64,000 nt of DNA. Source: an uncultured Gammaproteobacteria bacterium (GTDB lineage: Bacteria; Pseudomonadota; Gammaproteobacteria; UBA9214). The translations under genes and the position numbers were made by a program. Numbering within the stretch: the stretch's first letter is position 1; the number at the start of each line of letters is the position of its first letter. Below, piece by piece: positions 1 through 20,239 of this stretch. The stretch lies in contig CAVVHS010000006.1 of the NCBI GenBank assembly GCA_963748215.1, forward strand, positions 448,001 through 512,000, given 5' to 3'. A model generated the notes under the pieces. That model saw only the letters and a program-made list of their open reading frames with translations. It made no database searches and was not told the DNA's origin.

Positions 1-316
1 GCTGCAGCAATTTCGAGAGCTGTTCGTAATCCTGGTTGTCGCCTTGCAGTGGCAGGCGCTTGATGAGCCCGCCGTCACGATCTCCTACTTCAATGCCATC
101 CGCGCGCACCACTATTTCCAGATGAAATTCCCGGGGCTCGTCCTGGTTCGACGCGCTGGCAGCCGCCGGCAGGTTGAGTTCCAGGATTGTGATGCGCGAA
201 AACACTGCGGTCATCAGCAGGAATGGTACCAGGATCACCATGAGGTTCATGAATGCGGTGATATTGATATCACCCGGATCCTCTGAACGACGGCGGCGAT
301 TGAAGCGGTTCCTCAT
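1..316 (-). CDS. ExbD/TolR-family protein (runs off the window edge)
   Basis: Hand translation from ATG at 316: MRNRFNRRRRSEDPGDINITAFMNLMVILVPFLLMTAVFSRITILELNLP; basic N-terminus, one TM helix, LNLP motif; ATG overlaps the stop of the upstream ExbB-like gene. Confidence 0.9.
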   Translation of the reverse strand, partial: MRNRFNRRRRSEDPGDINITAFMNLMVILVPFLLMTAVFSRITILELNLPAAASASNQDEPREFHLEIVVRADGIEVGDRDGGLIKRLPLQGDNQDYEQLSKLLQ

Positions 317-963
317 CAGGCCTTACCTTCCAGCGGCTTCTCGGTAATGCTGTTGATGAACTTTACCGAGGCCATTTCCAGGCTGTCGATCAGCTGCGTG
401 GTCTTGGTCTGCAGCACGGCGTAGATCAGCAGAAGCGGGATGGCAACCATCAGGCCGAATGCCGTGGTGTTCATTGCGACCGAGATGCTGGCGGACAACA
501 TGTCTGCTTTTTCGGACGGGTTGGCCGAGGCCACCGCGGTGAATGCCTGGATCAGGCCGATAATGGTGCCGAGCAGACCAAGCAGTGTGGCGATGTTGGC
601 GAAGGTCGCGAGGTAAGGAGTGCGTTTTTCGAAGTTCGGCACGGTCTCCATCAAGCCCTCTTCCATCGCAATCTCGACATCGTCGCGTCGACGCGAAGAC
701 CGGGCGCGGCTCAATCCGTAGCTGAGGATGTGACTGATGGCCGAGCGGGACTTTTCAGTCAGCATGGCCACCTGCAGGTAATCGCCCTTGGCAAGATGCG
801 GGGCCAGCTTTTTCCACAATCGGTGGTTGCTGCTGCTTGCCGCGCTGAGGTAAATGTAGCGTTCAACGGCAATAGCCAGGCCCAGCGCCAGCACCAGCAC
901 AATCGGGTACATAAAAAAACCTCCCGACTGAAAGAAACCGACAAATGTAGTATAGAAATCCAT
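316..963 (-). CDS. MotA/TolQ/ExbB proton channel family protein
   Basis: 215 aa; GGFFMYPI, ATLLGLLGTIIGLIQAF, ISVAMNTTAFGLMVAIP motifs. Confidence 0.95.
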   Translation of the reverse strand: MDFYTTFVGFFQSGGFFMYPIVLVLALGLAIAVERYIYLSAASSSNHRLWKKLAPHLAKGDYLQVAMLTEKSRSAISHILSYGLSRARSSRRRDDVEIAMEEGLMETVPNFEKRTPYLATFANIATLLGLLGTIIGLIQAFTAVASANPSEKADMLSASISVAMNTTAFGLMVAIPLLLIYAVLQTKTTQLIDSLEMASVKFINSITEKPLEGKA

Positions 964-1074
964 GGTTATGCTCCTGTAGCTTCCCCGGTAATTAGTGAGT
1001 CAATACACTGCGGTGCAGGCTTTTCTGCCCATCGGCATGCTGCGCAAAAAGTTCAATTACCTTACATTTACTGA

Positions 1075-1359
1075 TCATTTGGAACTGTGAACTGCTTCGT
1101 AGTAATCAAGTTCCCTGAGAAACACGTCACGGTCGATGGGTGCAAGAATCTCGTCGACGAGGCTGTTCATCGGGCGTGCCGCCAGATCACCTGCCTCTGC
1201 TGATTTCCAGGGTACGATGTGCAAGGCCTTGGGTAGTTCCTGGTTGCCGGTGATGGTGGTGCCCTCCAGATCCAGCCTGTCGGCGGCATATGCACAGGTT
1301 CCCGCGAGGAAATGCCCTAGCAGGATGCCAATAACAGTCAAACTGGCAGTGTGTTTCAT
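1075..1359 (-). CDS. small exported conserved protein (positional GltF-like candidate)
   Basis: 94 aa with signal peptide; LEGTTITGNQELPKALHIVPWK; start overlaps the stop of the preceding TPR gene. Confidence 0.75.
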   Translation of the reverse strand: MKHTASLTVIGILLGHFLAGTCAYAADRLDLEGTTITGNQELPKALHIVPWKSAEAGDLAARPMNSLVDEILAPIDRDVFLRELDYYEAVHSSK

Positions 1360-1982
1360 CGTTTTTCTCCGGTAGCGACATTGACCTGGCTGGTTTGCTC
1401 GCGTAGTGCATCAATCCATGCAAGCAGCTGTTTGTCATCCGACTGAGTCAGTTGCTGATATCGCTCGTAGTGGAGCAACGCCTGCGCCGGGTTTGGCAGG
1501 TAACGGTCGTAGAGAACGCCGAGGTTCCAGTGGATATCCTCATTGTTCGGGTTTATTTTCAGTCCCTCGTTGTATACAGCAGCGGCTGCCTCCAGTCGCC
1601 CGCTACGACGGTAAATGATACCCAGCTCGTTATAGGCAACAACCTGGCTGGCATTGGCCTCGATGGCTTTATCGAATGCAAGCTCTGCACCTGCGGTATC
1701 GCCAATCTTGGAGCGTGCAATACCGAGATTCGTCCACGGACCTGAAAGGCGTGGATCATTTGCAGTGATTGCATCGAGTTTTTCCATGGCGGTATACCAG
1801 TCACCGGCTTTCATAAGCTGCAAGGCGGCCTGAAATTCGCCTTCGACATCTGTGATCGTTTTGGTTGTGGTAACCGGCGTATCAAATCCGGTCGACAAGG
1901 CCTGTTCACGCGGTGTGGTGGCACATCCGCCCAGCGCGATGAGAAGCATGAAAACTGTTACATTAACGTAGCGATGCGACAT
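1356..1982 (-). CDS. TPR lipoprotein (GltE-like)
   Basis: Probable start MSHRYVNV at 1982; lipobox LGGC; TPR repeats (GPWTNLGI, AYNELGII, IHWNLGVLYD). Confidence 0.85.
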   Translation of the reverse strand: MSHRYVNVTVFMLLIALGGCATTPREQALSTGFDTPVTTTKTITDVEGEFQAALQLMKAGDWYTAMEKLDAITANDPRLSGPWTNLGIARSKIGDTAGAELAFDKAIEANASQVVAYNELGIIYRRSGRLEAAAAVYNEGLKINPNNEDIHWNLGVLYDRYLPNPAQALLHYERYQQLTQSDDKQLLAWIDALREQTSQVNVATGEKR

Positions 1983-4761
1983 AGTCTGTGCTCCTTTCCT
2001 GCTTCGCGTACTTGCCCGGGACCAGCCGAGCCAGCTCATGCAGGCTCTTCTCGATCCATGCGTCAAACATGCCGGACTCGGTACGGGCTGCATTGGTTTC
2101 ATGCAATGCAATGGCCTGCTCTTCGAACGGATACGCCTGATCTTCCAGCAGGATACTGTATTCTTCCAGTGCCTCGGCATTCAGGTTCTTCGGACGCTCG
2201 GATTCCATCAGTGATCTGCCAAGATGCATGTACAGTTGTGCGGTATGGTAGGCGGCTGCCGTGGTAACTATGGCCACGTCATAGGCGGCGGCCTGTTCAT
2301 ACTGTGACAGGGTTGCTTCCAGCAGGCGTTTCTTGCTGGCCAGCGTCTTGTTCAGCGGAAGCTTCAGGGCAACAGCCTGGTACTTGGCGTTCTGTGCATC
2401 GGCCAGTGTCAGGCGTGCGTGTGCGGCGAGATAGCGTGTGCGATCGGTGCGGTTGTTGCCGGCCTGCGCATCGGCCGTGATAATTGCCTGCAGCCACTCG
2501 TGCCATTGCCGCGTATCACCGAGCGACTTGTATTGATCTGCAACGCGTTGCCGTGCCTCGATGGCGGTCGCTACCGGTTGCGGGAATTGCTTGATATAGT
2601 AGATATAAATTGCTGTCGACTGATCGCTGCGCCCGGCCCTGGCATACAGCTCGGCGGCCTGCCACAGGGCGTCACTGCGCAGCTGTGCATCAGCGTCACT
2701 GCGTCCGATACGTTCGAATTCCTGCGCGGCCTGAAGCGGACGTGCGCTGGCAAGATAGGCCGTCGCCAGTCGCCGCGTCACTTCCTCCTGGCGGGGATCA
2801 TCCGGATAAGTGCTGCGGAACTGCTCGAGAGTACTGGCTGCAGCGCCGAAATCATTCAGGTGCATCAGCCCGGCTGCGGCATCATATTCCGCGGTGGCAA
2901 CAATGCTTGCTGTCGGTGCGGCATTACGCACACGCTGGAAATGCCCAACAGCAGCGCGGGTGTCGCCGACCGCTTGCGCAGCTTCACCCTGTTTGTAAAT
3001 AGATGCCGCAAGTCTCTCTGTTAATTGATTAATATCCTTGTTATTTGCGGCCGTTCGCGCGAGTACCTGCTGGTAGGCCTGCTCGGCATGCAGGAAGTCC
3101 TGCAGGTCAAAGTAGGCGTGTGCCTGGACCGTCCAGCTTACCCGTTGCTGATCCCGGGTGGCGCTGGCATCGTCGATGACCAGCTGCGCCACCTGTATGG
3201 CACGCGTGTTTTCGTTGATCGCCAGTAATTGTTCCGCGGACCGGGTCAGCACGGCGAGGGATTGCGGATGTTTAGGGAAGCTGGCAGCGAAGCGAAGCGC
3301 ATTCTCTATGGACTCACGATGCCATACAGCCTGATCAGCTCCGGAGAGTCGCGTTTCTTCCTTGCCATACGCGAGCACCGAGGCATAGCCGGCCTCGGCA
3401 GCCTTGTCATGATCACCGTAATCATAGGCGGTGCGCACGAATTCCATGCTGGCTTCCCGGTAGTTGCCCGATTCGTCGAGTAATTCAGCCAGCAAAAAGT
3501 TCATCCCTGCTGCTTCGGGATCCTTGGCAAACGAACCGAGCCAGGTGCGATACCAGTGCGTGGCTTCGGCGTAATCTTCCTGCTTGCGGGATTTTTGTGC
3601 CTGGGCATGATAGTGTCGCGACAGATCGGTCATCGTGACCTTAAGGAAGCCCAGCACCTGGCCTGCTTCGGCCATATCGTGATGCTGCCAGTATTCGCCC
3701 TGCAGATTGTAGCGATCGACGAAATCCTTCTTGCCCTGTAATACCAGTGAGGGGAATTTTCCGGCCTGGTAGGCGTCGATTACACGCATTTGGAAGGCAG
3801 GCGCCTGGCGGTGAATCAGGTTGTTCGAGACGAATGCCCCGAATGTCTCGGCGGCATCGGTGTATCGTTCCTTGTCCAGATACAGCTTGCCCAGGTGGTC
3901 ATACACGACATCTTCGTAGTGACGTGTGCCATGCTCTGCATAGTATGCCGCTACTGAGCGGGCGCCCTCTTCATAGGAGAAGCTCAGGCTCATTACACGC
4001 AAGGTGTCCTCCACCATTTCCCTCTCCGCGCGTTCAAGCCCGGCCAGCCTGTCATTGTCATCCAGATTGTTTGCGAGTTTGCGGTCAAGCAGGTCGGTAA
4101 AGGCGTCGAGTCCTTCGGTAAACAACCCCTGCTTGAAATAACACCAACCCAGCTTGTAGATTGACTGCTGAAAGAACGGATTGTCATCACCACTGTCAAC
4201 AACTGCCTGATAGGCGAGCTCGGATCCGCGGTAATCCTTCTTGATAAAAAGTATTTCTCCCATCCGGAATTGCGACTCGAGTCGATGGTTGCTATCCGGG
4301 TATTGCCTTACAAGCTGATTCAGTTTAACCAGCGATTTATCCGGTTCCCCGCCCATTTCATAGGCGCGTGCCAGTTGATAGAGTACGGAATCATTGTCCG
4401 GGCGATCCGGGTAGTTTTCCAGTACCTGCTGGTAGAGAAGAATCGAGTCTTGTACCTGTTGCGGGTATTGAACCACCAGTTCAGGTTCTGTCGTTTCTGC
4501 TTCCGGTAGAACGTCAGACTCGAGGTTGATATCCGCCAGGCGGCGCATGGCTTGTGGGCGGGCCTCTGACCGGTCACTGGTTTCCAGGAAACGTCGATAC
4601 GCATTCATCGCCTGCTGTTCAGTCGATTCAATCGGCACATCATCCAGCCTGACCGGGCGACTGCCAAGATCAGCGATTGTAGGCGCGTCGTCACCACGAA
4701 ATATCGAGCAACCAGTGCTAACGTATGCAAAGGTCAGCAGTATCGGCAGACAGCGTTTCAT
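1963..4761 (-). CDS. large TPR lipoprotein (GltD-like)
   Basis: 932 aa; lipobox STGC; many TPR repeats (VLYQLARAY, SQFRMGEILF, SIYKLGWCYF); C-terminal LLEDQAYPFEEQAIALHE. Confidence 0.88.
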   Translation of the reverse strand: MKRCLPILLTFAYVSTGCSIFRGDDAPTIADLGSRPVRLDDVPIESTEQQAMNAYRRFLETSDRSEARPQAMRRLADINLESDVLPEAETTEPELVVQYPQQVQDSILLYQQVLENYPDRPDNDSVLYQLARAYEMGGEPDKSLVKLNQLVRQYPDSNHRLESQFRMGEILFIKKDYRGSELAYQAVVDSGDDNPFFQQSIYKLGWCYFKQGLFTEGLDAFTDLLDRKLANNLDDNDRLAGLERAEREMVEDTLRVMSLSFSYEEGARSVAAYYAEHGTRHYEDVVYDHLGKLYLDKERYTDAAETFGAFVSNNLIHRQAPAFQMRVIDAYQAGKFPSLVLQGKKDFVDRYNLQGEYWQHHDMAEAGQVLGFLKVTMTDLSRHYHAQAQKSRKQEDYAEATHWYRTWLGSFAKDPEAAGMNFLLAELLDESGNYREASMEFVRTAYDYGDHDKAAEAGYASVLAYGKEETRLSGADQAVWHRESIENALRFAASFPKHPQSLAVLTRSAEQLLAINENTRAIQVAQLVIDDASATRDQQRVSWTVQAHAYFDLQDFLHAEQAYQQVLARTAANNKDINQLTERLAASIYKQGEAAQAVGDTRAAVGHFQRVRNAAPTASIVATAEYDAAAGLMHLNDFGAAASTLEQFRSTYPDDPRQEEVTRRLATAYLASARPLQAAQEFERIGRSDADAQLRSDALWQAAELYARAGRSDQSTAIYIYYIKQFPQPVATAIEARQRVADQYKSLGDTRQWHEWLQAIITADAQAGNNRTDRTRYLAAHARLTLADAQNAKYQAVALKLPLNKTLASKKRLLEATLSQYEQAAAYDVAIVTTAAAYHTAQLYMHLGRSLMESERPKNLNAEALEEYSILLEDQAYPFEEQAIALHETNAARTESGMFDAWIEKSLHELARLVPGKYAKQERSTDYVASLR

Positions 4762-6626
4762 TGCACGACTCCCTTGCCAGGATACAGTGCATTATCGAAG
4801 GTCTGTGCCAGCGAGAATCGTGCCTGCACGATATAGGTATCAATGCGCTTTTTTTGCTGTTCAAGTTCCGCCACGGCCAGCTGCTCGATAAGCTTGCCTT
4901 GAGCGAGATGCAGCGACCCGGTTCGCTTCAGCAAGGCATGAATAAGGCTATTGTTTGTGTCAATGCGTTGTTTGAATGAGTTGAAGCCGGCGGGTGTGGT
5001 GATGCGGGCAGTGTTGAGTGACTCCAGGCCGGCTTCAGACTGCTCCAGCAGGCCGGAGACCTCGCCGAGCTGGCGTTTTGCCTGCCACAGGCGCGGTTTG
5101 TACACACTACTCAGTTGCCAGTAGAGTGCGCCTTTGACCCGAGCCAGGCGCACACGTAGTGCGCCGGTATCAGAATTTACAGGAAGTGTATCCAGCTTCC
5201 TCTTGATATCCTGTATTTTATACCATTGAGCAACTTCCTCGTTGTTGGCCAGACCGATCGGATCCCCTGCGTCCTCGATCTCTGACAGGCGGTGCCTGAG
5301 CTGGTGATGCTGTTGTTCCAGGCGGTCACGGTCATCGGAACGAAGGGCGCGCTCGGCCACAGGGCGGTTGTTTGCGAATCGATTCCGGCGTGCGGTTAGC
5401 ATGTCGTCGTATGCATCAATATTATCGGCCCAGGTCTCCAGATTATTCTGCAGCACCAGCAGGTCGCGGTAGTTCTTGACCGCTTCCTGAAACTCATGTG
5501 CCGCCATCAGAGTGACCTGATAGCGAAGTGCCGGTGACTGGGTATCCAGCGTCAGTTCCTGAAGCCAGCCGGAACCGCTGCGTAAATCCTGTCCCTGCAA
5601 TATTTCGAGTAATTCACCATTCCTGATGGCGGAAATTGAACCATCGAGTTTGTCCTTCTCATCGAACAGGGAACCGATTGCCTCGTTATAATGCTGCACA
5701 GCACGACCATGCAGGTTCATCCTTGTCATGGCGTATGGCATTGCCAGCAAGGCTTCCTGGACAGCAGGATCGGTAACATCACGCTTTCCGAGTTCCGTCC
5801 AGGGTACCAGTGCATGACCGTATTCGTCTGCTTCAGCATTGGCCCAGCCCGCACCAAGCAGTGCCTTGTTGGAAAGTGGCCCTTCCAGACGAACACGATC
5901 AAGTGAATCACGCGACTGTTTTGTAGCCCCTTCCTGCAGATAGCTGTAGCCTAGCGCAAGATTGGCCTTGTCCCGCAACAGTCGGATTTCCTCGTTGCGA
6001 CCGGACATTTCACCCAATGTGTCGAGTTCCTTTGCGCCATGGTCCAGTTGACCGCTGCGAATATAGGCAACGCCAAGGTTATAGGCGAGATAGGGAGACC
6101 ATGCCCTGGCGTCTTTTGATTCCTGCAGTACCTTGATGGCCGCATCATTCTGGCCGAGTTGCAATAACAAAAGGCTATGCAACTGGGCGGCCTCTACGCG
6201 CGTGGCCCGTGTCATGTTGCCATTGACGCGTGATAGAGCCTGAAGGGCATTGGCCGGGTCGCCGCGCTGGAATGATATCTTTGCTAGATAAAACCAGGCA
6301 CGGTTACGCGTTTGTTCGTCGCTATGTTCATCCGTCAGCATACTCTCGAAAATACGGCTGGCCTCATTACGCAACCCGTAAGAGAGATCCAGTCCACCCA
6401 GCAGCAAGTCGGCTTCGTCACCATGATTGGGGAGACGTTCCTGTTGCTGTGCAATTTGCAGACGTACGATGCTGTTGAACCAGTCATCCTGGAAATAATA
6501 AAAGAGTGTTTCTCCGTACTGGAGGTCCTGTGCAGTAGAAGGAAGATTGCGCTCAGTAGCGCATGCTGTCACCGTTTGAAGTGTCAGAACTACCGACAGG
6601 ATGCAGCTGCAGGCAATACGCAGCAT
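4758..6626 (-). CDS. exported TPR/coiled-coil protein (GltC-like candidate)
   Basis: 622 aa; signal peptide; TPR motifs (RAWFYLAKI, AYNLGVAY, ANLALGY) then coiled-coil; 4-nt overlap with the next gene. Confidence 0.85.
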   Translation of the reverse strand: MLRIACSCILSVVLTLQTVTACATERNLPSTAQDLQYGETLFYYFQDDWFNSIVRLQIAQQQERLPNHGDEADLLLGGLDLSYGLRNEASRIFESMLTDEHSDEQTRNRAWFYLAKISFQRGDPANALQALSRVNGNMTRATRVEAAQLHSLLLLQLGQNDAAIKVLQESKDARAWSPYLAYNLGVAYIRSGQLDHGAKELDTLGEMSGRNEEIRLLRDKANLALGYSYLQEGATKQSRDSLDRVRLEGPLSNKALLGAGWANAEADEYGHALVPWTELGKRDVTDPAVQEALLAMPYAMTRMNLHGRAVQHYNEAIGSLFDEKDKLDGSISAIRNGELLEILQGQDLRSGSGWLQELTLDTQSPALRYQVTLMAAHEFQEAVKNYRDLLVLQNNLETWADNIDAYDDMLTARRNRFANNRPVAERALRSDDRDRLEQQHHQLRHRLSEIEDAGDPIGLANNEEVAQWYKIQDIKRKLDTLPVNSDTGALRVRLARVKGALYWQLSSVYKPRLWQAKRQLGEVSGLLEQSEAGLESLNTARITTPAGFNSFKQRIDTNNSLIHALLKRTGSLHLAQGKLIEQLAVAELEQQKKRIDTYIVQARFSLAQTFDNALYPGKGVVQ

Positions 6627-6629: not shown

Positions 6630-7178
6630 TTATTCCCATTCCTTGATACTGAAGTCCGGTTGTTCGCTGCTCGGATTGTCGACGATTTTTACTTCGACAT
6701 ATTTCGCGCCGAGACTCTTGTTGATAACAAGACTGGCACCACGGCGATAGTCACGGCCCTTCGGGCCCATGCCGGTATATACTGCAACGAGTTCGTGTTC
6801 ACCAGCCTTGAGATTTCCCATATACAGGCGCTGGATCCCTCCCCTGTGCAGGGCATCGACCTCACGCTGGGTGTAGAGATAATTGCTTACAACCTTGTCA
6901 TCGACCTTGAGCTGCACCGAGTCAAGCTTGAAAAATTCCCCGACATCAACAGACACGAATACGGCCAGTTGTGTGTTGGCCGGATACAACAGTTCCTCTT
7001 CAAGGATGAACAAGTCACGGTTTAGTGCGATAACATCCTGTTTCAGCGATTGAATATTTTCATCCAGGCCGGCGGCGGCCGGTGATTCTGCCTGCGCAAC
7101 ATTGAGTAACAGCATCATAATAATGCCAACGATGACAAATTTGATTGAACGATCGGGAAATTCTGGATGCAACATCAT
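6630..7178 (-). CDS. conserved exported hypothetical protein
   Basis: 182 aa; signal peptide, short coiled coil (IQSLKQDVIALNRDL), then beta-rich domain; 3 nt from the next gene. Confidence 0.8.
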   Translation of the reverse strand: MMLHPEFPDRSIKFVIVGIIMMLLLNVAQAESPAAAGLDENIQSLKQDVIALNRDLFILEEELLYPANTQLAVFVSVDVGEFFKLDSVQLKVDDKVVSNYLYTQREVDALHRGGIQRLYMGNLKAGEHELVAVYTGMGPKGRDYRRGASLVINKSLGAKYVEVKIVDNPSSEQPDFSIKEWE

Positions 7179-7385: not shown

Positions 7386-8366
7386 CTAGTGCGTGAGTTG
7401 TTCCAGGCCATCCGAATAGTGCATTTTTCCCTGGTTGTCGATAATGACTGCCTCGGTGTCCGGCAAGGTATTTATCAATGACAGCCCCTTGGTGACGCCT
7501 AGTACAAAAACGCTGGTCGACAGCGCATCCGTATGTGTGGCATTGGTGCCGATAATTGTCGTGCTGTGCACCTCGCGGGGAGAGTCCCCCGTGCCGGGGT
7601 TGAGAATGTGGTGATAACGTATGCCATCCTGGTCGAAAAAGCGTTCATAATCGCCGGAAGTTGAAATTGCCGCGTCTTCCAGCGGAATTCTTGTGATTAT
7701 GCCATCGTGTTTGCGCGGGTCGCGGACTCCGATCATCCAGGGATGTTTCCAGCGTCTGCCGATTACCCGGGTATCCCCCCCGGCGGTGACCAGGGCATTA
7801 CTGATACCGGCTGCCTGCAGCATGGCAATGCATCGGTCTACGGCATAGCCCTTGGCAATACCGCCGAGATCGATGCGCACGCCGGGTTGTGTGAATCTGA
7901 CAGATGAATGTGTCTTGTCCAGTATTACGTGACGATAGCTGATTGCCGGCAGCGCCGCAGCAAGCTGCTGGTCGTCAGGTTTCCTGCCGGTTCGATAATC
8001 GTAATATTGTCCGGCACTGGCATAGGTGATATCGAAGGCACCATCGGTTATGTCCGAATACCGAAGAGCCTGCTCGATCAGGGCGAATAGTTCAGTGCTG
8101 ACAATGACGGCTTGTGTAGCAGACTCTGCATTGACGCGTGACAATTCGCTCTCGGCCTTGTAGCTACTCATCAGCTGATCAATACGGCGCATTTCATCCA
8201 TGGCAGCGTCGATCAGTGACCTGCCTTGATGTTCGTCGTCATGCCACAGTTCCACATTCACGGCCGTGCCCATGATGGCGGCTTCGTCGCGAAACCAATC
8301 GGCACATGCCAGGCCTGGTAGCAAGAGCATGGTCAGAACAAACGCATGATATTTCAGCTGCCTCAT
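7386..8366 (-). CDS. apbE: FAD:protein FMN transferase
   Basis: IMGTAV, TDGAFDIT, IDLGGIAKGYAVD, AGGD, AISTSGDYER, YHHILNP, DALST motifs; probable start MRQLKY. Confidence 0.95.
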   Translation of the reverse strand: MRQLKYHAFVLTMLLLPGLACADWFRDEAAIMGTAVNVELWHDDEHQGRSLIDAAMDEMRRIDQLMSSYKAESELSRVNAESATQAVIVSTELFALIEQALRYSDITDGAFDITYASAGQYYDYRTGRKPDDQQLAAALPAISYRHVILDKTHSSVRFTQPGVRIDLGGIAKGYAVDRCIAMLQAAGISNALVTAGGDTRVIGRRWKHPWMIGVRDPRKHDGIITRIPLEDAAISTSGDYERFFDQDGIRYHHILNPGTGDSPREVHSTTIIGTNATHTDALSTSVFVLGVTKGLSLINTLPDTEAVIIDNQGKMHYSDGLEQLTH

Positions 8367-8510
8367 GGCTGACGTTATCGGCACATGGCAGATTAGATTG
8401 ACTGGAGGCAGCCCGGATGAAAAGCCCGTAAGCAGGGGGGATGGCTGCAATGACAACCCCGGATTACGGAATTACTGCCCACATCCGGGCTGCAGGGAAA
8501 GGATGGCCGG

Positions 8511-12686: not shown

Positions 12687-13886
12687 TTAGTTACCCATGC
12701 AGTAGATAGCGGTATCAGCGAACACCGTTTTCATGTTGTAGTTGCTCGCTATGAAGTTGTCCGTGATAGTGTCGACTTCGTTCCGGTCGGCAGTATTCCC
12801 CGGTTCACGCAGGCAGACGGTCTTGAATACTTTTTTCACCTGGCATGAAGCAAAGGCGCGACTGTTGGCAAGCTCGATGCCCAGTTCCTTGGCGCCACTA
12901 CCGCTGCCGGCCAGGTTCATGCCATTTGTATCCCAGCCCAGCAGGGAGTTCTGACCGTCACGCCAGTAGTTATCCCAGCGGTCATCCGGTGTCACGTAAC
13001 CATGCTTGAAAGTATCCGAATTAATAAAGTATTTAGGTTGCACGATGCCGGGCGTGTACTCGATGCTGCCGGAGTTCTCGTCGAAGTTGTAATAGGCGAA
13101 GGCCTGTGCCATCGGGTCCATCCCGCTGTGGCAACCGACGCAGGAGTTGAGGAAGAGGCGGCTATCGCCGCCAGGGCTGCGCGAGATATCCTGTCGAATA
13201 CGGTCGGTTGGTCGGCTGGTGTCTTTTACTTGCTCGAGATCGTTGCAGAGGTGGTTCAGAAGCGTGAATCGAAACATGGCCCGATTGGTGCCGGCTACAA
13301 AAAAGGCCTCGGCTGCGCCGCGCGTGGTCATGACGCCTGCTGTCGCATTTGAAGGTAAACCTGTGACGACCGACTGCACGTCCGGCACCAGCGCGGTCAT
13401 CAGATCATAACCGCCATCTTCAAGCTCCTGGTAGTGAGCATTACTGGTCGTCGAGTAGCCGGATATCGGCAGTGACGGGCTGCCGGTATAGATGATGTCT
13501 GCGGACAAGAGCTGGTTGAATGGCACGTTGTCGCGAATCATGCCAATGACCGTCGCGGTATAATCATTCAGCGGTACGAACACGTTTTGGTCACGGTTGG
13601 ACCACGGTGCTGCGAAATTCTTCAGCGTAACGTTATAAAACGCACTGTTGGCCATCGCCATGCCGGCTGCGCCAATAGCATCGTTACTGCCGATAGCGGC
13701 TTCCATGGCATCCAGCACGGTATTGCTCGGCGGCACACCTGCGATCCGGTCGTGGATACGCTTCGCCTGACGGCGTTCCAGGTCGCCGGCGGTCGCCGGA
13801 GATGCCATGGATAGCAGTGACCCCAGGCAAAGCGTTGCGATCAGGCTGCGTGTGAATAGTGTGAATGCCGTTCTTTGATAGCTCAT
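12687..13886 (-). CDS. exported mono-heme c protein, DUF1588/DUF1585-like
   Basis: 399 aa; signal peptide; AGVMTT, CVGCHSGMDP, C-terminal FASCQVKKVF..REP. Confidence 0.75.
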   Translation of the reverse strand: MSYQRTAFTLFTRSLIATLCLGSLLSMASPATAGDLERRQAKRIHDRIAGVPPSNTVLDAMEAAIGSNDAIGAAGMAMANSAFYNVTLKNFAAPWSNRDQNVFVPLNDYTATVIGMIRDNVPFNQLLSADIIYTGSPSLPISGYSTTSNAHYQELEDGGYDLMTALVPDVQSVVTGLPSNATAGVMTTRGAAEAFFVAGTNRAMFRFTLLNHLCNDLEQVKDTSRPTDRIRQDISRSPGGDSRLFLNSCVGCHSGMDPMAQAFAYYNFDENSGSIEYTPGIVQPKYFINSDTFKHGYVTPDDRWDNYWRDGQNSLLGWDTNGMNLAGSGSGAKELGIELANSRAFASCQVKKVFKTVCLREPGNTADRNEVDTITDNFIASNYNMKTVFADTAIYCMGN

Positions 13887-14053: not shown

Positions 14054-14206
14054 TTAACTGCACAAAATCACTACAAAATTTCGTATGTACCGCTGATTTC
14101 TACGGTGTGCAGAATGGTTCGGCCAGTCGTGGCCCGCGTCACTGCCCTTGTTTACATGAAATTCGACACGTTCCTTAAGGTTTGCCGGACGGAGAGCCGA
14201 TCACAC

Positions 14207-16826
14207 ATGAATATGAAAATACACACTCTGACACGTTATCTCCGTTACCCGGATAACAAAGCAGGCATTGCCTTTGTTATGACCCTGCTGCTGGCAGCCT
14301 GCGGCGGTGGCGGGAGCCAGGACCCGGACCCGCTGGTCGAGGACTTTGGTATCGCCTTCGTTATGCGGCCGCTGGAATTCAATATGGCCGGCAACTTCGT
14401 GCAGCCTGATATCCGCGAGATCGAGGGTTTCACATCCGGGGGTGATCTCTACTACCGTGACCTGGCGTCCCCCAGCGCTTCGACCCGCAACATCACCGGT
14501 GCACTGACCGGTGGTATGGGTGATGTCAAGGACGTGGAGGTTTCCTACGATGGCACCAAGCTGCTGTTCTCGCTGCGTCTGGACGATATCCCGAATGTCA
14601 TGCGTGATCAGCAGAACAAGTGGGATCTTTATGAGTATGACATCGTAGCTGATACGCTGACGCGTCTGACAACGGCAAATACCTCCCTGCTTGGTGACGA
14701 TGTCGCACCTCATTACCTGCCGGACGGCAGGATCATCTTTTCCTCAAATCGCCAGCGCCAGTTCCGTGCAACGCTGACTGACGAGAGCAAGGGTACCGGA
14801 CCATTCTATGCGCTTGATGAAAACCGCAATGAGCACGCCATGATGTTGCATATCATGAACGCTGACGGCAGCAATATCAGACAGATTTCTTCGAACCCGA
14901 GCCACGACCTGGATGCGATTGTTCTCGAGAGCCAGAACAATCCACAGGAGTCAGGCAAGGTAGTATTCAGCCGCTGGGACAACATGGGCGGTCGTGAACA
15001 GATCAGCCTGTACATGATGAATCCGGATGGAACCGACCTGCAACCATTGTATGGTGCGCACAGCCACGACACCGGTACCAATGGTTCCACGGTGCAGTTC
15101 CTGCAACCGCGAGAGATGCCGGATGGCCGGCTGATGACCGTGATGCTTCCCTTTGCGAATTCCAGTCGTGGCGGCGACCTGGTGCTGATCGATACCCAGA
15201 ATTATATCGACAATACCTTCCCGACCGCAGTCAATGCCGGTGTGCTGTTCGGTCCGGCACAGACGCCGGCGACAACCAATATCATTCATACCGACAACAC
15301 CATTTCACCGGGTGGCCGTTTCATGTCGGCCTGGCCGTTGCTCGACGGGACCAACCGTGCACTGGTCAGCTGGAGTGCCTGCAGGCTGGTCGAGAATACC
15401 CAGATCGTGCCCTGTACTCCGGCACGGCTTGCCGATCCGGCGGCTGTGGAGGCCGATCCGATCTACGGCATCTACATCCATGACATGGACAACAGTACGC
15501 AGATCCCGATCGTGGTGCCGCAGGAAGGCATTCTGTTCACCGACGTGATTGCGGTTGCCCCGCGCACGGTCCCCAACTTTATCCGGGACAGGGTTCCGGG
15601 TGTTGATCTCGATCTTGCGGCAGCAGGAGAAGATGTCGGCATCCTCAATATTCGCAGTGTCTATGACATCGATGGCGTCGACACTGCGATCCCGGATATC
15701 CCTACACTTGCAGACCCGGGACTGACAACATCAGCAGATTTGCGACCCGCCCGCTTCCTGCGCATCGTCAAGAGTGTCGGTATTCCGGATAACGACACCA
15801 AGCAGATCCCCGGCACGGCCTTCGGCGCGAGTGCGCAGCAGTTAATGCGCGAGATCGTCGGTTATGTGCCGGTTCAGCCTGACGGTTCGGTACGCACCTA
15901 TGTACCGGCCAATGTCCCGTTGGCCATCAGTGTGGTCGATCGTGACGGTCGGCGTCTTCCGACCTCGCCCCGGCACCAGAGCTGGTTACAGCTCAAGCCC
16001 GGTGAGGAAGTCACCTGTAACGGCTGTCATGATCACACCAGCGGTACACCACATGGCCATCCGGAAGCCCCGCTGTCGGCCTATGCCGGTGCACCTGCCC
16101 TTGGCGAATTTCCGAACACCAACAATCCGCCCTACTTCGCCAACTTTGGCGAGACCATGGCCGAGACCCTGACGCGTGTCGATCCGAACGCATTGCGACC
16201 GTCGATGGACCTGGCCTATGTTGATCTCTGGACCGACCCGGCCAAAGCCCTGCGTGCGGCGGACCTCAGCTACTCACTCAGCTATGCTGCCCTGACTACG
16301 CCGGCACCAAACACGGCCGCCTGCGAGCAGTCACCGCCGCCTGCGTGGACCAGCCTGTGTCGCGCGGTCATCCACTACGAGACCCATATCCACCCGTTGT
16401 GGAGCGTCGACCGCGGTGTCGAATACCTGCACCAACTGTCACACAACCGCCAACAATACGATGGTGCCCGCCGGCCAGCGTCAGATCGACCTGACCAATG
16501 GACCTGACGCGCAGGTCCCGGAGCACTTCAAGGCCTACCGCGAACTCCTGTTCTCGGACAACGAGCAGGAACTTGTTGGCAACGTCTTGCAGGACCGGTT
16601 GGTGCCCGGCCCGATTGATCCGATCACCGGCCTGCCGACCATGGTGCCGGTCCCCATTAACCCTCCCATGTCCGCTGCCGGCGCCCGTGCCAGCAATGCG
16701 TTTTTCGCGCCTTTTGACGCGGGTGGCGCACACGTCGGATTTTTGACTCCTGAAGAATTACGGCTACTGGCCGAATGGCTGGATATCGGTGCGCAGTATT
16801 ACAACGATCCATCAATCGTCCCGTAG
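14207..16826 (+). CDS. hydrazine-synthase-alpha-like beta-propeller/heme c lipoprotein (one apparent frameshift near 16420)
   Basis: Lipobox LAACGGGG; TolB/PD40-like repeats (VSYDGTKLLFS, YLPDGRIIFSSNR); PDGSVRTYVPANVP...CNGCH; continues in the next frame with CTNCH and ends LLAEWLDIGAQYYN. Confidence 0.8.
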
Positions 16827-16865
16827 CAGTAACTGCGCCGTAACTTTTAAAAAGTTGATTGATTT

Positions 16866-17639: not shown

Positions 17640-18283
17640 GGTCGGTGGCACTGCTGGCGCTGCTGGGAATGACCTGCGGCTGTTCCCTGCTGCGCACTGC
17701 CGAGGAGCCGGAGGTATTCAGCGAGTCCGAGCCCGTGATCAAGCCGGATATCGAACGTCGGACGATAACCGAAGCGGATATCGACAGCGAGGATTTCGAG
17801 GTCGGGGCGTTTGTGGGCGTGATGAGTATCGAGGACTTCGGCAGCAACGTGGTGTATGGCGTAAGGGCGGCCTACCACACCACCGAGGACTTCTTTTTCG
17901 AGGTCGGTGTCGGTGCTACCGAAGCTGGCAAGACGAGTTACGAGACCCTGAGCGGTGGCGCGCAGTTACTGACCGACAGCCAGCGTAAACTTTATTACTA
18001 CAATATCTCACTCGGGTACAACATCCTGCCGGGCGAGGGTTTTATTGGCAGCCGCTATGCCTTCAACAGCGCCCTCTACCTGATAGCCGGAGCCGGAAAT
18101 ACCGAGTTTGCCGATGACAGCCATTTCACATTCAACGTTGGTGCAGGCTATCGCCTCCTTTTTAACGACTGGATCGACCTGCATGTGGATTTCAAGGACC
18201 ATATTTTCGAGTCGGACCTGCTTGGTACCAACAAGTATACCCACAATCTGGAAGGGACTATTGGACTGTCCGTGTTCTTTTAA
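17609..18283 (+). CDS. outer-membrane beta-barrel protein (GltA/GltB-like candidate)
   Basis: 224 aa; signal peptide, amphipathic strands, C-terminal GLSVFF; overlaps the previous gene. Confidence 0.8.
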   Translation: MESRGCIFLLRSVALLALLGMTCGCSLLRTAEEPEVFSESEPVIKPDIERRTITEADIDSEDFEVGAFVGVMSIEDFGSNVVYGVRAAYHTTEDFFFEVGVGATEAGKTSYETLSGGAQLLTDSQRKLYYYNISLGYNILPGEGFIGSRYAFNSALYLIAGAGNTEFADDSHFTFNVGAGYRLLFNDWIDLHVDFKDHIFESDLLGTNKYTHNLEGTIGLSVFF

Positions 18284-18293
18284 GGAGCCTGCT

Positions 18294-18800
18294 ATGCGAT
18301 ACACACAATCCCGTTACATCAGACACACACTGGCAAGCCTGCTCGTCCTGTTCGCAACGACGGTTGCAGCAGGTGTAGCCCAGGCACCGGCGCCGGATTT
18401 CACTTTGAAGAGTGCCGATGGCGAAAACCTCCGTCTCAGTGAACTGCGTGGCGATGTCGTGATGATAAATTTCTGGGCGTCCTGGTGCGGCCCATGTCGA
18501 CAGGAGATGCCGATACTGAGTGAATTGCATGACAAGTACAAGGCGATGGGCTTTACCGTGCTGGGTGTGAATGTCGAAGAAGATTCTTCCAAGGCAAAAA
18601 AACTGTTGAAAGAAATGCCGGTCAGTTTCCCGATACTGTTTGATAACGAGAGCGTCGTAAGCAAGCAGTACGACGTGGTGGCCATGCCCAGCACGGTACT
18701 GGTCGACCGCGACGGCAAGATGCGTTTCCTGCATAAAGGTTACAAGCCGGGTGAGGAAGAAATCTACCTGGAAATGGTCCGAAACCTGATCAGGGAATAA
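18294..18800 (+). CDS. TlpA-family thiol:disulfide oxidoreductase
   Basis: APDFTL, INFWASWCGPCRQEMP, AMPSTVLVDRDG; AAGGAG RBS upstream. Confidence 0.93.
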   Translation: MRYTQSRYIRHTLASLLVLFATTVAAGVAQAPAPDFTLKSADGENLRLSELRGDVVMINFWASWCGPCRQEMPILSELHDKYKAMGFTVLGVNVEEDSSKAKKLLKEMPVSFPILFDNESVVSKQYDVVAMPSTVLVDRDGKMRFLHKGYKPGEEEIYLEMVRNLIRE

Positions 18801-18808
18801 TCCTCAAT

Positions 18809-19033
18809 ATGAGACATGCTTACTGCCTGATCATACTGCTCGCCGGCCTGCTGGCTGGCTGCAGCTCTATTGAGCCCTGGGTGAAACCCTATGAACGTGC
18901 GCACCTTGCTGACCCGATCATGAGCTTCAGCCCGGACCCTGTGTCATCTGCATATATCAATCATGTCTACCAGGCCCGTGAAGGCGCGCGTGGCGCCGAG
19001 GGTGGCAGTGGTGGTGGTTGTGGCTGTAACTAG
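18809..19033 (+). CDS. DUF4266-family small lipoprotein
   Basis: 74 aa; lipobox LAGC; VKPYERAHLADPIM...REGARG...GGGCGCN. Confidence 0.85.
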   Translation: MRHAYCLIILLAGLLAGCSSIEPWVKPYERAHLADPIMSFSPDPVSSAYINHVYQAREGARGAEGGSGGGCGCN

Positions 19034-19050
19034 GAAAGTCTGAATCAATC

Positions 19051-20239
19051 ATGATTTACCGCAAAGACACCAAGACCGCAATGAACCTTGGCGCGCACTG
19101 CACCTTCACGCTGTGTGCCGGGCTTGCCCTTTTGCTTGTCTGTGCGGGAGGCGATGCGGCCGTGCTGCCAGAGGACCGTGCCGATGCCCTCTATCATTCT
19201 TATGACGGTGGCGGTGTTGAAATCAGTGGCCCGTCACTGCTGGTGCTGAAGAAGCTTGGACAGAATGTCGCCGTGACGGGCAATTACTACGTCGACTCGG
19301 TGAGCAGCGCGTCGATCGATGTAGAAGTTATCAGTGGCGCTAGCACGTACACTGAGGATCGTACCGAATTCTCCGGCGGGATTGATTACCTGCACGGCAA
19401 TTCGATTATGAGCCTGTCCTACACCAACAGTAGCGAAAACGACTACGATGCAAACACCGCCGGCTTCGGCATCAGCATGGACATGTTCGGCAATATGACT
19501 ACGCTGTCACTGGGCTATGCGCATGGCTGGGATACGGTCGGGAAGAATGGTGACTCCGGCATTTTCCGAAGATGTAAGTAGGCATAACTACCGCTTGGGT
19601 GTCTCGCAGGTGATCACCAAGGACATGATCCTGGAGGTCAATTACGAGGGTATTACTGATGAGGGTTTCCTGAATAATCCCTACCGTTCGTATCGATACG
19701 ATGATGGAAGCGGTGGATATATGCTCGACGACGAACTATACCCGCGCACCCGTACCAGCAGTGCGGTCACGCTGCGCTCAAAATACTATCTGTCCTGGCG
19801 TGCGGCGCTATCGGGCGAGTACCGCTTCTTTGCGGATACCTGGGGTATCGATGCACACACCCTGAAATTCGGCTACACGCACCCGCTCAGTGGCGGGTGG
19901 CAGGTGGAAGGCACATACCGCTACTACACGCAGACTGCCGCTGATTTCTACAATGACCTGTTTCCGTTTGCAGGATCACAGAACTTTCTCGCGCGCGACA
20001 AGGAACTCAGCACGTTTACAAGCAATACACTCGGCGCCAAGCTGAGCTATGACTTCTTCAAGAACGGCTGGCACGCTATCGACAGTGGCAGTGTCAACCT
20101 GGCCTATGATCTGATCTGGTTCGACTACGATGATTTCCGTGATGCGCGTCTTAACAGTCCCAGCGTACCGGCCGGTACCGAGCCCCTGTACAGTTTCACG
20201 GCCGGCGTGCTGCAGTTGTTTGTCTCACTCTGGTTCTGA
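19051..20239 (+). CDS. DUF3570-family outer-membrane beta-barrel protein (one apparent frameshift near 19556)
   Basis: LPEDRADALYHSYDGGG, VDSVSSASIDV, GFLNNPYR, YRYYTQTAADFY, RDKELS; two ORFs join into one protein ending SLWF. Confidence 0.8.

Follow-up and report, generated by a model that had tools for sequence, protein, structure and literature searches.

An Agl/Glt-like motor encoded beside haem, flavin and thiol proteins: a candidate envelope system conserved in Gammaproteobacteria

The nearest known systems to the locus described here are the Agl/Glt 'core complex' and, grouped with it, the Agl-Glt gliding and Agl-Nfs spore-coat machines of Myxococcus. The core complex is reported from Gammaproteobacteria, Geobacter and Fibrobacter (Luciano et al. 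2011, PMC3169522). In the available text of the literature, the gammaproteobacterial core has been treated since 2011 as a standalone unit of unknown function (PMC3169522). Maqu_1807-1814 code for proteins of 324, 166, 170, 235, [one tag skipped], 189, 952 and 648 aa, assigned as GltG, AglS, AglQ, AglR, GltE, GltD and GltC (PMC3169522). According to the available parts of the Myxococcus literature, two adjacent barrels that are paralogues, GltB (275 aa) and GltA (256 aa), bind the TPR protein GltC. The motor works via GltG/J on an outer-membrane platform of GltA/B/C/H/K that controls the surface exposure of the lipoprotein CglB, and a TonB-box pull was proposed.

Two further published modules are related to the locus. 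Flavinylation clusters termed 'DsbD systems' contain ApbE, DUF3570, DUF4266 and thioredoxin-like genes, and ApbE flavinylates DUF3570 at two motifs (Méheust et al. 2021, PMC8238504). That survey covered five genes on each side; neither a motor nor the haem proteins described below are mentioned in its available text. In the PVC superphylum, Tat-signal DUF1501 proteins are found in modules with PSCyt/PSD cytochrome-motif proteins, some with Laminin_G_3; the available text of that study gives their function as unknown (Kamneva et al. 2012, PMC3542564).

The window is the whole stretch of 64,000 nucleotides that was analysed. The open-reading-frame listing and scans against Pfam and NCBIfam reveal 17 cluster genes at positions 1–20239, 11 on the minus and 6 on the plus strand (Table 1). 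The original prediction had described 16 tightly packed genes, almost all for exported or membrane proteins. One of p94 and p182 had been missed, and ApbE and p182 are 207 bases apart. All cluster genes, including three further ones just before the window start, code for exported or membrane-bound proteins. The content assigned to positions 1–20239 is correct, but the system extends beyond them, with the rest of the first ExbD, a second ExbD and a TonB-like protein. The scans confirmed five CxxCH motifs in three proteins, three barrels and the absence of a TonB-dependent receptor domain from this region, all of which had been predicted. Among 80 related loci, 57 carry these genes together; thus, the arrangement is not due to chance.

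Table 1. Features of the cluster, with coordinates in the window unless a locus (L001) is given.
Feature	Position	Strand	Basis
TonB/GltG-like transducer, 315 aa	L001:16351-17298, outside window	-	NF033768
Second ExbD, 166 aa	L001:17301-17801, outside window	-	ExbD family
ExbD/AglQ-like stator subunit	2..316	-	PF02472 E 1.4e-09; C-terminal end cut off by window start
ExbB/TolQ/AglR-like proton channel, 215 aa	316..963	-	PF01618, 101 bits
p94, small exported protein	1075..1359	-	between ExbB and TPR lipoprotein
Small TPR lipoprotein, 208 aa, GltE position	1356..1982	-	TPR Pfam families
TPR932, 932 aa, GltD position	1963..4761	-	TPR families and YbgF-like repeats
TPR622, TPR and coiled-coil, 622 aa, GltC position	4758..6626	-	TPR families
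p182, anchored adaptor	6630..7178	-	first gene in every motor module examined
ApbE, FAD:protein FMN transferase	7386..8456	-	PF02424, 279 bits
Tat-exported protein, predicted alkaline-phosphatase-superfamily fold	8511..10124	-	twin arginine; AlphaFold2 model
LamG lipoprotein (Laminin_G_3), 846 aa, 2 CxxCH	10143..12683	-	PF13385, 73.6 bits
Exported cytochrome, 399 aa, 1 CxxCH	12687..13886	-	CxxCH motif
Two candidate CRP-type sites	13968-13983 and 14037-14052	.	TGTGA-N6-TCnCn and its mirror form
HZS-alpha-like lipoprotein, beta-propeller and HZS-alpha middle domain, 2 CxxCH	14207..16826	+	PF18582, 55.6 bits
SH3 and small outer-membrane beta-barrel, 257 aa	16866..17639	+	SH3_3 37 bits; OMP_b-brl 28.3 bits
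Small outer-membrane beta-barrel, 224 aa	17609..18283	+	TIGR04565, 172.5 bits vs cut-off 60
TlpA/ResA-like periplasmic thiol-disulfide oxidoreductase	18294..18800	+	AhpC-TSA and Redoxin, 108-109 bits
DUF4266 lipoprotein, C-terminal GGCGCN	18809..19033	+	PF14086 E 5.6e-23
DUF3570 outer-membrane barrel, known ApbE substrate family	19051..20239	+	PF12094, 123 bits

The HZS-alpha-like and DUF3570 genes are each split across two frames in the window. In the contigs of all four public runs that were compared (two studies), a single base is missing at 16421 and another at 19554. Removal of these bases restores open reading frames of 872 and 395 aa, respectively, which equal the orthologue lengths. 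Both frame breaks are assembly insertions.

The motor half agrees with Maqu_1807-1814 and Sfri_1223-1230 in its genes, their order and their sizes (in order 315, 166, 172, 215, p94, 208, 932 and 622 aa in the cluster). The 172 residues are those of the complete ExbD that is truncated in the window, and the full ExbD copies match PF02472 with E-values of 4.7e-16 and 7.2e-16. For the motor proteins, the equivalog models of TolQ, TolR, ExbB and ExbD all scored below their own cut-offs. The TonB-like protein is Pro-rich and anchored and carries the AgmX/PglI C-terminal domain (NF033768, 64.8 bits, cut-off 40). TPR proteins occupy the GltC, GltD and GltE positions; published counterparts have 550–648 aa for TPR622 and, in Marinobacter, 939–952 aa for TPR932 (PMC3169522). 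The small TPR lipoprotein, with a lipobox-like motif in 25 of 36 orthologues, reaches 35 bits against the GltE model NF033758 (cut-off 225). No Pfam or NCBIfam match was found for p94. Its position is kept in related loci and corresponds to that of the 'additional gene' described for the core complex, where the Marinobacter locus tags skip one gene. The AlphaFold2 model of p182 (mean pLDDT 88.9) comprises a transmembrane helix, a long helix and an Ig/transthyretin-like sandwich. Pfam and NCBIfam gave no family match for p182, and the structure search returned generic sandwich folds only (Z at most 9.0).

On the redox side, the gene of the 224-aa barrel overlaps that of the preceding SH3 and barrel protein, which also matches TIGR04565 (E 7.3e-10). 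These two adjacent barrels are likened to GltB/GltA by size and adjacency. CxxC is present in 80/80 orthologues of the TlpA-like protein and the CxC tail in 82/82 of DUF4266. The two DUF3570 motif positions read SSAS and SGAS in the window. The canonical [S/T]GA[S/T] flavinylation motif is found in only 12 of 36 full-length orthologues; the other 24 have S-S-A-S or T-T-A-S at the aligned positions. In related loci, ApbE often lies 10 kb from the DUF3570 group and adjoins the Tat gene or the motor.

The haem motifs are conserved: two CxxCH in 89/91 orthologues of the LamG lipoprotein and in 73/77 of the HZS-alpha-like protein, and one in 94/94 of the cytochrome. A lipobox is present in most orthologues of the two dihaem proteins (lipobox-like motif in 66/76 for the LamG lipoprotein). 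The cytochrome scores 20.5 bits against PSD2, below the cut-off of 25.8. In the Tat protein, the twin arginine (Arg25 and Arg26) is invariant in 29/29 aligned orthologues, and identity across families is 58–73%. Pfam yielded no family even at E-values up to 10, and no modelled family was found. In VIA-align, the best 50 matches to its AlphaFold2 model (pLDDT 73.9) are all chains of the alkaline-phosphatase superfamily (Z 8.8–11.1); Foldseek returned nothing significant.

Between the divergent operons, the candidate CRP-type site TTTCTGTGA is invariant in all eight genus members. Such a site was found in 28 of 82 divergent intergenic regions of this kind, with a density of 0.72 per kb versus 0.022 per kb elsewhere in the same loci.

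Co-occurrence was analysed in a class sample of 300 genomes of Gammaproteobacteria, with the motor scored by TPR932. The Tat protein was found in 37/301 genomes, TPR932 in 59/300 and the HZS-alpha-like protein in 38/300. The motor is present in 35 of 37 Tat-protein genomes and 37 of 38 HZS-alpha-like genomes versus 24 of ~263 Tat-negative genomes, counts that overstate the association because related genomes are not independent. The original prediction had named independent occurrence of the halves across genomes as evidence against it. The motor family is indeed found by itself (in 24 of the 59 genomes with a motor, the Tat protein is missing), whereas the redox half is almost never found without a motor. 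One complete genome (G068) carries a fragment of the HZS-alpha-like gene and the trio of cytochrome, LamG lipoprotein and Tat protein, and no motor. In some families (G310, G128 and a Kangiellaceae chromosome) the parts are scattered.

The motor lay within the fetched region in 14 of 20 Tat-positive genomes, mostly of different families. Among these 20 genomes it is placed after the Tat gene, after ApbE or after DUF3570, in one long operon, or inverted. Both halves thus remain adjacent through at least four gene orders in many families. The motor adjoins the trio in 23 of 80 named loci (22 directly after the Tat gene, one just upstream of the cytochrome gene), and in four of five further records it lies 3–5 kb past DUF3570. 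Even in Tat-negative genomes, the motor is linked in 6 of 20 loci to at least DUF3570 and the two barrels. The full run from the HZS-alpha-like gene to DUF3570 is present in three of these; TlpA and DUF4266 are missing from two, and the HZS-alpha-like gene and DUF4266 from the remaining one. Gene placement is also complementary: the redox unit of G261 lacks TlpA and ApbE, both of which adjoin its motor on another contig, and that of G285 lacks ApbE, which adjoins the motor.

A tree of p182, ExbB and both ExbD proteins from 47 loci places 25/25 linked loci in one group of 28 (SH-aLRT 83). Support for this group is only moderate, and one of its members (G032) is unlinked. On the weakly resolved tree of TPR932 only, the linked motors are not one clade (13 changes). 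The p182 of linked loci is 44–86% identical to the window copy, and that of most unlinked loci does not exceed 45%. The four-protein tree lends moderate support to one distinct lineage of linked motors.

Co-occurrence, adjacency through at least four gene orders, the shift of TlpA and ApbE to the motor and the single motor lineage favour one system over two neighbours, and comparative genomics thereby supports the core of the original prediction, a single system. Export or movement of surface haem lipoproteins, or electron transfer coupled to the motor, had been put forward as its candidate functions. Judged from these sequence comparisons, the cluster probably functions as a single system. 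With a probability of about 0.5, it is one conserved envelope system of ~20 genes, in which a dedicated paralogue of the Agl/Glt 'core complex' is combined with an outer-membrane redox module. The motor side would comprise the ExbB/2xExbD-type proton motor, the TonB/TolA-like transducer, three TPR proteins, p94 and p182. The redox side would comprise two GltA/GltB-like barrels, the flavin-carrying DUF3570 barrel with DUF4266, TlpA and ApbE, the HZS-alpha-like dihaem propeller lipoprotein, the monohaem protein, the dihaem LamG lipoprotein and the Tat-exported alkaline-phosphatase-fold enzyme.

Because this outer-membrane haem, flavin and thiol set is fixed beside the motor in many Gammaproteobacteria, its proteins are the best candidate for the target of a proton-driven envelope motor that, outside gliding bacteria, has lacked an assigned task since 2011. 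Tentatively, the motor may gate the redox platform. By analogy with Myxococcus, proton flow through the stator would make the TonB-like protein pull the barrel/TPR platform, and this pull would assemble, gate or expose haem and flavin lipoproteins at the outer membrane. Electrons may then follow two routes: a thiol route via TlpA and DUF4266 to the DUF3570 flavins, and a haem route leading to or from a substrate that the LamG domain would hold and the Tat enzyme would process. The sequence comparisons show gene content, conservation, co-occurrence, one motor lineage and cofactor motifs; physical contact between the halves, the direction of electron flow and the substrate are inferred.

Energised import instead of exposure is possible but unlikely. 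Here a substrate, e.g. a metal, would be taken up through DUF3570 or the small barrels, opened by the TonB-like transducer; flavins and haems would reduce it first, and the Tat enzyme would release it. Such uptake would be analogous to TonB-dependent transport but receptor-less. The gene set fits this reading, with ExbB, two ExbD and a TonB-like protein that is Pro-rich, in the absence of a classical TonB-dependent receptor. AglRQS-GltG has been called a putative TonB-dependent-transporter-like unit (Islam 2020, available text), and the available text of the flavinylation survey links such clusters to iron assimilation, with 25 DUF3570 clusters containing a VIT1 transporter (PMC8238504). However, neither a plug domain nor a TonB box was identified in the cluster. 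Comparison of related loci revealed no conserved inner-membrane importer, as the NodI/NodJ-like ABC pair is kept within the genus only. Furthermore, a Fur box match of at least 15 of 19 is found in just 2 of 82 divergent intergenic regions; the conserved site is of the CRP type.

That two or three independent envelope systems stand together only through shared ancestry, regulation or a need for envelope biogenesis factors is improbable. The trio does occur alone (G068, G310, G299 and G174), DUF3570 clusters exist in other phyla (PMC8238504, available text), standalone motors have unrelated housekeeping genes as neighbours, and a gap of 207 bases separates ApbE from p182 in the window. Synteny of the whole region within the genus is uninformative on function. 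Against independence, in addition to the co-occurrence, rearrangements and relocated genes described above, linked motors form their own lineage beside a second, unlinked paralogue in the same genomes (e.g. G136, G315, G299, G109). Some of these otherwise unlinked copies have a TlpA-like gene directly adjoining p182 (G136_C41, G315_C26; also G047). An extra TlpA lies between the Tat gene and p182 in L164, L172 and L182, and ApbE alone adjoins the motor in G274 and G285. Such placements would fit the reverse relation, in which the redox genes serve the motor: TlpA, ApbE and DUF3570 would maintain the proper redox state of a Tol-like envelope-integrity machine or of its platform, with the haem proteins as bystanders. 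This is very improbable: p182 contains no cysteine, most standalone motors have no redox neighbour, and the strong joint conservation of the three haem proteins and the Tat enzyme would be left unexplained.

The preferred reading, a single motor-redox system, departs from each known counterpart. It shares with TonB-ExbB-ExbD and Tol-Pal the MotA/TolQ/ExbB channel, the ExbD/TolR subunits and a Pro-rich anchored transducer, but lacks a TonB-dependent receptor, TolB and Pal. In contrast to the PVC modules, which in the available text likewise place a Tat protein of alkaline-phosphatase fold beside CxxCH proteins, one with Laminin_G_3, its Tat protein has no Pfam match, PSD2 and PSCyt3 are matched below cut-offs only, and a gammaproteobacterial host carries one copy per genome, not many. 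All four families of the 'DsbD systems' occur together and the CxC tail of DUF4266 is present, but DsbD is not co-located (410 kb distant) and the motif glycine of DUF3570 is mostly Ser or Thr in this clade. Compared with Agl/Glt, the GltG-like protein has no FHA domain, cytoplasmic AglZ/MglA-type parts are missing, the proteins score far under the cut-offs of the GltE, GltG and GltJ equivalog models, and p182 is an extra conserved first gene, absent from the 2011 table (PMC3169522). The claim that the combination has no characterised counterpart was too strong for the parts, as both halves had been published as modules with no known function. The constituent parts are already-described modules; the novelty lies in their link, one core lineage tied to haem, flavin and thiol proteins.

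ORF listing and scans with Pfam and NCBIfam models identified 17 genes, eleven of them on the minus and six on the plus strand (see table). The ORF and domain scans agree with the parts named in the original prediction; its count of 16 genes is corrected to 17. The window corresponds to C6:448001-512000 in a 3.5-Mb genome of 9 contigs, and the ORF listing of the preceding stretch (L001) shows that the cluster extends three genes beyond the window start. No domain of a TonB-dependent receptor (plug, 22-strand barrel) is present in any of the scanned proteins. For ease of comparison, ExbB, both ExbD proteins, the TonB-like protein, the TPR proteins, p94 and p182 are referred to as the motor half and the remaining genes as the redox half; TPR932 is the 932-aa TPR protein.

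Genes of the cluster in order of transcription on each strand
Gene product	Position	Strand	Characteristics
Monohaem protein	first in minus-strand transcription order from 13886 down	-	399 aa, CVGCH
LamG lipoprotein	second on minus strand	-	846 aa, CNDCH and CTGCH, Laminin_G_3 domain
Tat protein	third on minus strand	-	537 aa, twin-arginine signal, no family
ApbE	fourth on minus strand	-	PF02424, 279 bits
p182	after ApbE across a 207-base gap	-	begins the motor genes
Three TPR proteins	after p182	-	622, 932 and 208 aa in that order
p94, ExbB, ExbD	after the TPR genes, in that order, to position 1	-	ExbD completed before the window start
Second ExbD, then TonB-like protein	before the window start, after the first ExbD	-	TonB-like protein 315 aa, Pro-rich; ORF and domain scans
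HZS-alpha-like lipoprotein	first plus-strand gene	+	propeller, HZS-alpha middle domain, two CxxCH
SH3 and barrel protein	second plus-strand gene	+	257 aa, TIGR04565 match
Small barrel	third plus-strand gene	+	224 aa, TIGR04565 at 172 bits
TlpA/ResA-like redoxin	fourth plus-strand gene	+	Redoxin, 108 bits
DUF4266	fifth plus-strand gene	+	PF14086, 82 bits; C-terminal GGCGCN
DUF3570	sixth plus-strand gene	+	PF12094, 123 bits

An ABC-2 exporter pair resembling NodI/NodJ lies directly after the TonB-like gene (L001:14417-16131). A redoxin and a thioredoxin-2 are encoded farther on from this pair, also ahead of the window. The transporter is not counted among the components of the system since it is conserved within the genus only and is absent from other families. 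On the other side of the cluster, window 20663-25892 encodes an alpha/beta-hydrolase lipoprotein (Hydrolase_4), a 556-aa TPR protein and a 647-aa FG-GAP/ASPIC-UnbV protein. The synteny of these three genes is limited to the genus.

The genes of the HZS-alpha-like protein and DUF3570 each change frame within the window and are single frames in relatives. Contigs from four public runs (two studies) were aligned to window 16300-19700. The window contains one extra base at position 16421 and another at 19554, both of which are omitted in the contigs of all four runs, and the C at 16414 is a G in the contigs of all four. Minus the two extra bases, the ORFs encode 872 aa (HZS-alpha-like) and 395 aa (DUF3570), both inside the length ranges of the orthologues. 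As these independent contigs are free of the extra bases, pseudogenisation of the two genes is rejected. Both frame breaks are errors of the assembly, and the genes are intact in the population. Similar indels may be present in other genes of this genome.

The divergent intergenic region contains two CRP-type sites of the form TGTGA-N6-TCnCn (window 13968-13983 and 14037-14052). The sequence TTTCTGTGA is unchanged in 8/8 members of the genus. Across families, a CRP-type site is present in 28 of 82 divergent regions. The density of sites is 0.72 per kb in these regions and 0.022 per kb elsewhere in the loci (~30-fold enrichment). This pattern hints at control by a regulator of the cAMP-CRP family. 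A scan of the divergent intergenic regions revealed no Fur box. For window 1-20000, neither predicted sigma-70 promoters (11, mean of shuffles 12.9) nor terminators (16, shuffles 16.6) are in excess.

Within the genus, the entire 30 kb, flanks included, is syntenic, which shows vertical descent only. A class-wide survey was based on one fixed 300-genome sample, with thresholds of E ≤1e-20 for TPR932 and E ≤1e-30 for the HZS-alpha-like protein. The Tat protein was found in 37/301, TPR932 in 59/300 and the HZS-alpha-like protein in 38/300 genomes. The motor is present in 35 of the 37 Tat-positive genomes, the exceptions being G026 (a partial match at a contig edge) and the complete genome G068, and in 37 of the 38 HZS-alpha-like-positive genomes, with G068 again the exception; these counts treat related genomes as independent and are thus overstated. 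The original prediction of a single system, to be abandoned if its halves occurred independently, is supported for the redox half, which lacks the motor in 2/37 and 1/38 genomes, respectively. It does not hold for the motor, which occurs without the Tat protein in 24 genomes of the sample.

The motor genes lie within the fetched region in 14 of 20 Tat-positive genomes, in several arrangements. The motor directly follows the Tat gene (G206, G193, G315, G200), follows ApbE in a window-like order (G305, G087, G176) or is placed on the far side, after DUF3570 (G209, G136, G083, G312). A single long operon runs from the HZS-alpha-like gene via DUF3570 and ApbE to the motor in G220 and G186, and in G280 the motor is found 9 kb off on the opposite strand. 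Six genomes have no motor in the fetched region. In two of them, G174 and G299, only the trio of cytochrome, LamG and Tat genes is present at the Tat site, and a motor is joined to the run from the HZS-alpha-like gene to DUF3570 elsewhere. The redox unit of G261 is devoid of TlpA and ApbE, both of which immediately precede p182 of a motor on another contig. In G285 ApbE adjoins a motor ~18 kb from the redox unit, in G310 the parts are scattered, and the complete genome G068 contains no motor.

Among the named public loci, 57/80 contain the full divergent unit, that is DUF3570, DUF4266, TlpA, both barrels and the HZS-alpha-like gene on one side and the cytochrome, LamG and Tat genes on the other. 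The remaining 23 comprise 18 loci whose upstream flank is shorter than 10 kb and five with full flank yet without the unit. The motor directly follows Tat in 22/80 and is upstream in one. In four of five records without a motor after Tat (Paraglaciecola arctica, Shewanella phaeophyticola, Colwellia sp. RE-S-Sl-9 and S. maritima), a TPR932 homologue is located 3–5 kb past the end of DUF3570. Three motors are encoded in the fifth record, a Kangiellaceae chromosome, but each at a distance. In Steroidobacteraceae-type loci (L164, L172, L182 and also L162), a second TlpA-like gene is inserted between Tat and p182.

The Tat-negative set consists of 20 motor loci from 19 genomes. In six of these, the motor is still linked to both barrels and DUF3570 as a minimum: three have the full run from the HZS-alpha-like gene to DUF3570, two are without TlpA and DUF4266, and G047 is without the HZS-alpha-like gene and DUF4266. 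ApbE is present in 1/20 and none of these redox genes in 13/20.

Many genomes contain two motor copies. The p182 proteins of linked copies, i.e. those joined to redox genes, are 44–86% identical to that of the window, and most unlinked ones reach 45% at most. The tree calculated from TPR932 alone has weak resolution and does not unite the linked loci, with 13 changes of the label "linked" compared to a mean of 25.2 after shuffling. A tree of concatenated p182, ExbB and both ExbD sequences was calculated for 47 loci; loci missing any of these at 70% coverage were dropped. It contains one group of 28 loci (SH-aLRT 83), consisting of all 25 linked loci, two loci with ApbE/TlpA only and the unlinked motor of G032. 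The other 19 loci are outside this group. Around 26 unlinked motor loci, the adjacent genes (47 proteins) are unrelated housekeeping genes except for an occasional TlpA-like gene or barrel, so that no alternative cargo emerged. Since the linked motors group together and the neighbours of the unlinked ones are unrelated, the redox unit has, on sequence grounds, a dedicated paralogue of the core complex.

TlpA-like genes adjoin p182 of the otherwise unlinked copies L203, L206 and L101. The window's genome has the linked motor copy only. Three genomes of the same genus (G004, G021, G015) additionally contain an unlinked paralogue with ~37% identity in TPR932, and four TPR932 matches across these genomes are interrupted by a single TAG.

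The Tat protein family is present at no fewer than 579 loci of the species-representative genome collection. Named hosts are Shewanella, Colwellia, Paraglaciecola, Microbulbifer, Thiodiazotropha, Steroidobacteraceae, Cellvibrionaceae and a tubeworm symbiont. In a draw of 400 genomes from the phylum, all five further matches fall inside the window's own class. Two metagenome bins with the cluster are titled Klebsiella pneumoniae (L133) and Enterobacteriaceae (L130). These labels look doubtful because the list neighbours of both are marine Gammaproteobacteria. Ordinary genetics could show whether outer-membrane redox proteins are under the control of a proton motor, as several genera that carry the cluster are in culture (Shewanella, Colwellia, Paraglaciecola, Microbulbifer).

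The cluster is a real, conserved composite system assembled from known kinds of modules. A literature search, with subscription journals mostly outside its coverage, found no paper joining the motor to these redox genes. According to the accessible text of Méheust et al. 2021 (PMC8238504), ApbE, DUF3570, DUF4266 and a thioredoxin-like protein form a flavinylation cluster, in which ApbE flavinylates DUF3570 at two [S/T]GA[S/T] motifs; its function was left open, and 316 such clusters are without DsbD. DUF3570, a CxC-tailed DUF4266, a thioredoxin-like protein and ApbE share one neighbourhood here as well. DsbD is not co-located, the sole DsbD_TM match of the genome being at C6:38975 on the same contig, ~410 kb off. 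The two motif positions of DUF3570 are conserved. They read SSAS and SGAS in the window and mostly S-S-A-S and [ST]-[ST]-A-S in orthologues, with at least one canonical [ST]GA[ST] motif in only 12/36 full-length sequences. Because these conserved positions are mostly non-canonical, flavinylation of DUF3570 in this clade is rated as likely only. The CxC tail of DUF4266 is present in 82/82 and the CxxC of TlpA in 80/80 orthologues.

The trio of cytochrome, dihaem LamG protein and Tat protein resembles modules of PVC bacteria that combine DUF1501 with PSCyt/PSD and in some cases include Laminin_G_3 (accessible text of Kamneva et al. 2012, PMC3542564). A Laminin_G_3 domain is present in the dihaem LamG protein. 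The monohaem protein scores 20.5 bits with PSD2 (cut-off 25.8) and E 0.12 with PSCyt3. For the Tat protein, no match to a Pfam family, and hence to DUF1501, was obtained up to E 10; it has the fold class alone in common with these modules. Its AlphaFold2 model, calculated from 29 orthologues, has a pLDDT of 73.9, and the top 50 matches in VIA-align 2 are all chains of the alkaline-phosphatase superfamily (Z 8.8–11.1). Foldseek gave nothing at E ≤0.001 for this model, and nothing useful was found by comparing the sequence with solved structures. The HZS-alpha-like protein is not a hydrazine synthase alpha subunit by these models: a passing score is restricted to the middle domain (55.6 bits), the equivalog NF052339 reaches 35 bits with a cut-off of 800, and the locus contains no gene for a beta-gamma-like partner. 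CxxCH counts are kept in 94/94 monohaem, 89/91 LamG and 73/77 HZS-alpha-like orthologues. A lipobox-like motif is found in 66/76 LamG, 57/71 HZS-alpha-like and 64/82 DUF4266 orthologues, compared to 4/103 to 13/94 in non-lipoprotein controls.

The motor half corresponds to the Agl/Glt core complex. The accessible text of Luciano et al. 2011 (PMC3169522) describes seven genes (aglR, aglQ, aglS, gltG, gltE, gltD, gltC) clustered with one extra gene in Gammaproteobacteria, Geobacter and Fibrobacter, where their role is unknown. Its supplementary table lists Maqu_1807, 1808, 1809, 1810, 1812, 1813 and 1814 of Marinobacter (324, 166, 170, 235, 189, 952 and 648 aa; one tag is skipped) as counterparts of MXAN_4867 (GltG), MXAN_6860/6861/6862 (AglS, AglQ, AglR), MXAN_4869 (GltE), MXAN_4870 (GltD) and MXAN_2541 (GltC), respectively. 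The motor genes of the cluster (315, 166, 172, 215, p94, 208, 932 and 622 aa) have the same order and similar sizes, and thus comprise the seven clustered genes with one extra gene. The TonB-like protein has the traits of a GltG homologue, namely a membrane anchor, a Pro-rich linker, visible as a Pro-rich stretch in the sequence, and a C-terminal domain of the AgmX/PglI type (NF033768, 64.8 bits, cut-off 40). The full-length GltG equivalog NF033760 yields 42 bits versus 650, and the GltE model yields 35 bits versus a cut-off of 225 for the 208-aa TPR lipoprotein. In its model, p182 combines a transmembrane helix and a second, long helix with an Ig/transthyretin-like sandwich. Its structural matches are generic β-sandwiches with nothing specific among them, and a search of a protein atlas returned only clusters with an uninformative automatic name.

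Later papers, in their accessible parts, repeat that the role of the core complex outside Myxococcus is unknown, still so in 2020. The question dates back to 2011; DUF3570 flavinylation and the DUF1501-like cytochrome modules also lack an explanation in the accessible literature. One motor lineage tied to both redox modules provides a shared, testable context for all three.

In Myxococcus, according to the accessible literature, the AglRQS motor acts via GltG and GltJ, both TolA-like, on a platform at the outer membrane that is made up of three barrels (GltA, GltB, GltH), the TPR protein GltC and the lipoprotein GltK. Whether the surface lipoprotein CglB is exposed and retained is controlled by this platform, and a TonB-box pull was proposed. 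The adjacent, paralogous OmpA-like barrels GltB (275 aa) and GltA (256 aa) bind GltC. The same logic is seen in the cluster, with a motor that has a TonB-like arm, TPR proteins and two adjacent small barrels. These barrels (257 and 224 aa, both TIGR04565) are close to GltB and GltA in a comparison by size alone. Complex prediction for the C-terminal domain of the TonB-like protein and both barrels scored 0.00 (mark 0.32) and carries no weight either way. Because the cluster shares the logic of the Myxococcus platform, its motor may gate or position a haem-flavin platform at the outer membrane. The proposal builds on the observed gene content, conservation and motor lineage; contacts between motor and redox proteins, an electron path and a substrate are inferred. 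With a probability of about one in four, the native cargo of the gammaproteobacterial core complex would be an outer-membrane haem-flavin conduit, with the motor mechanically gating or moving surface redox lipoproteins, possibly as the ancestral function on which myxobacterial gliding was built. If true, this would be an energised extracellular electron exchange without a described counterpart. The cluster also has a third, probably flavin-bearing barrel, and its possible cargo lipoproteins carry haem.
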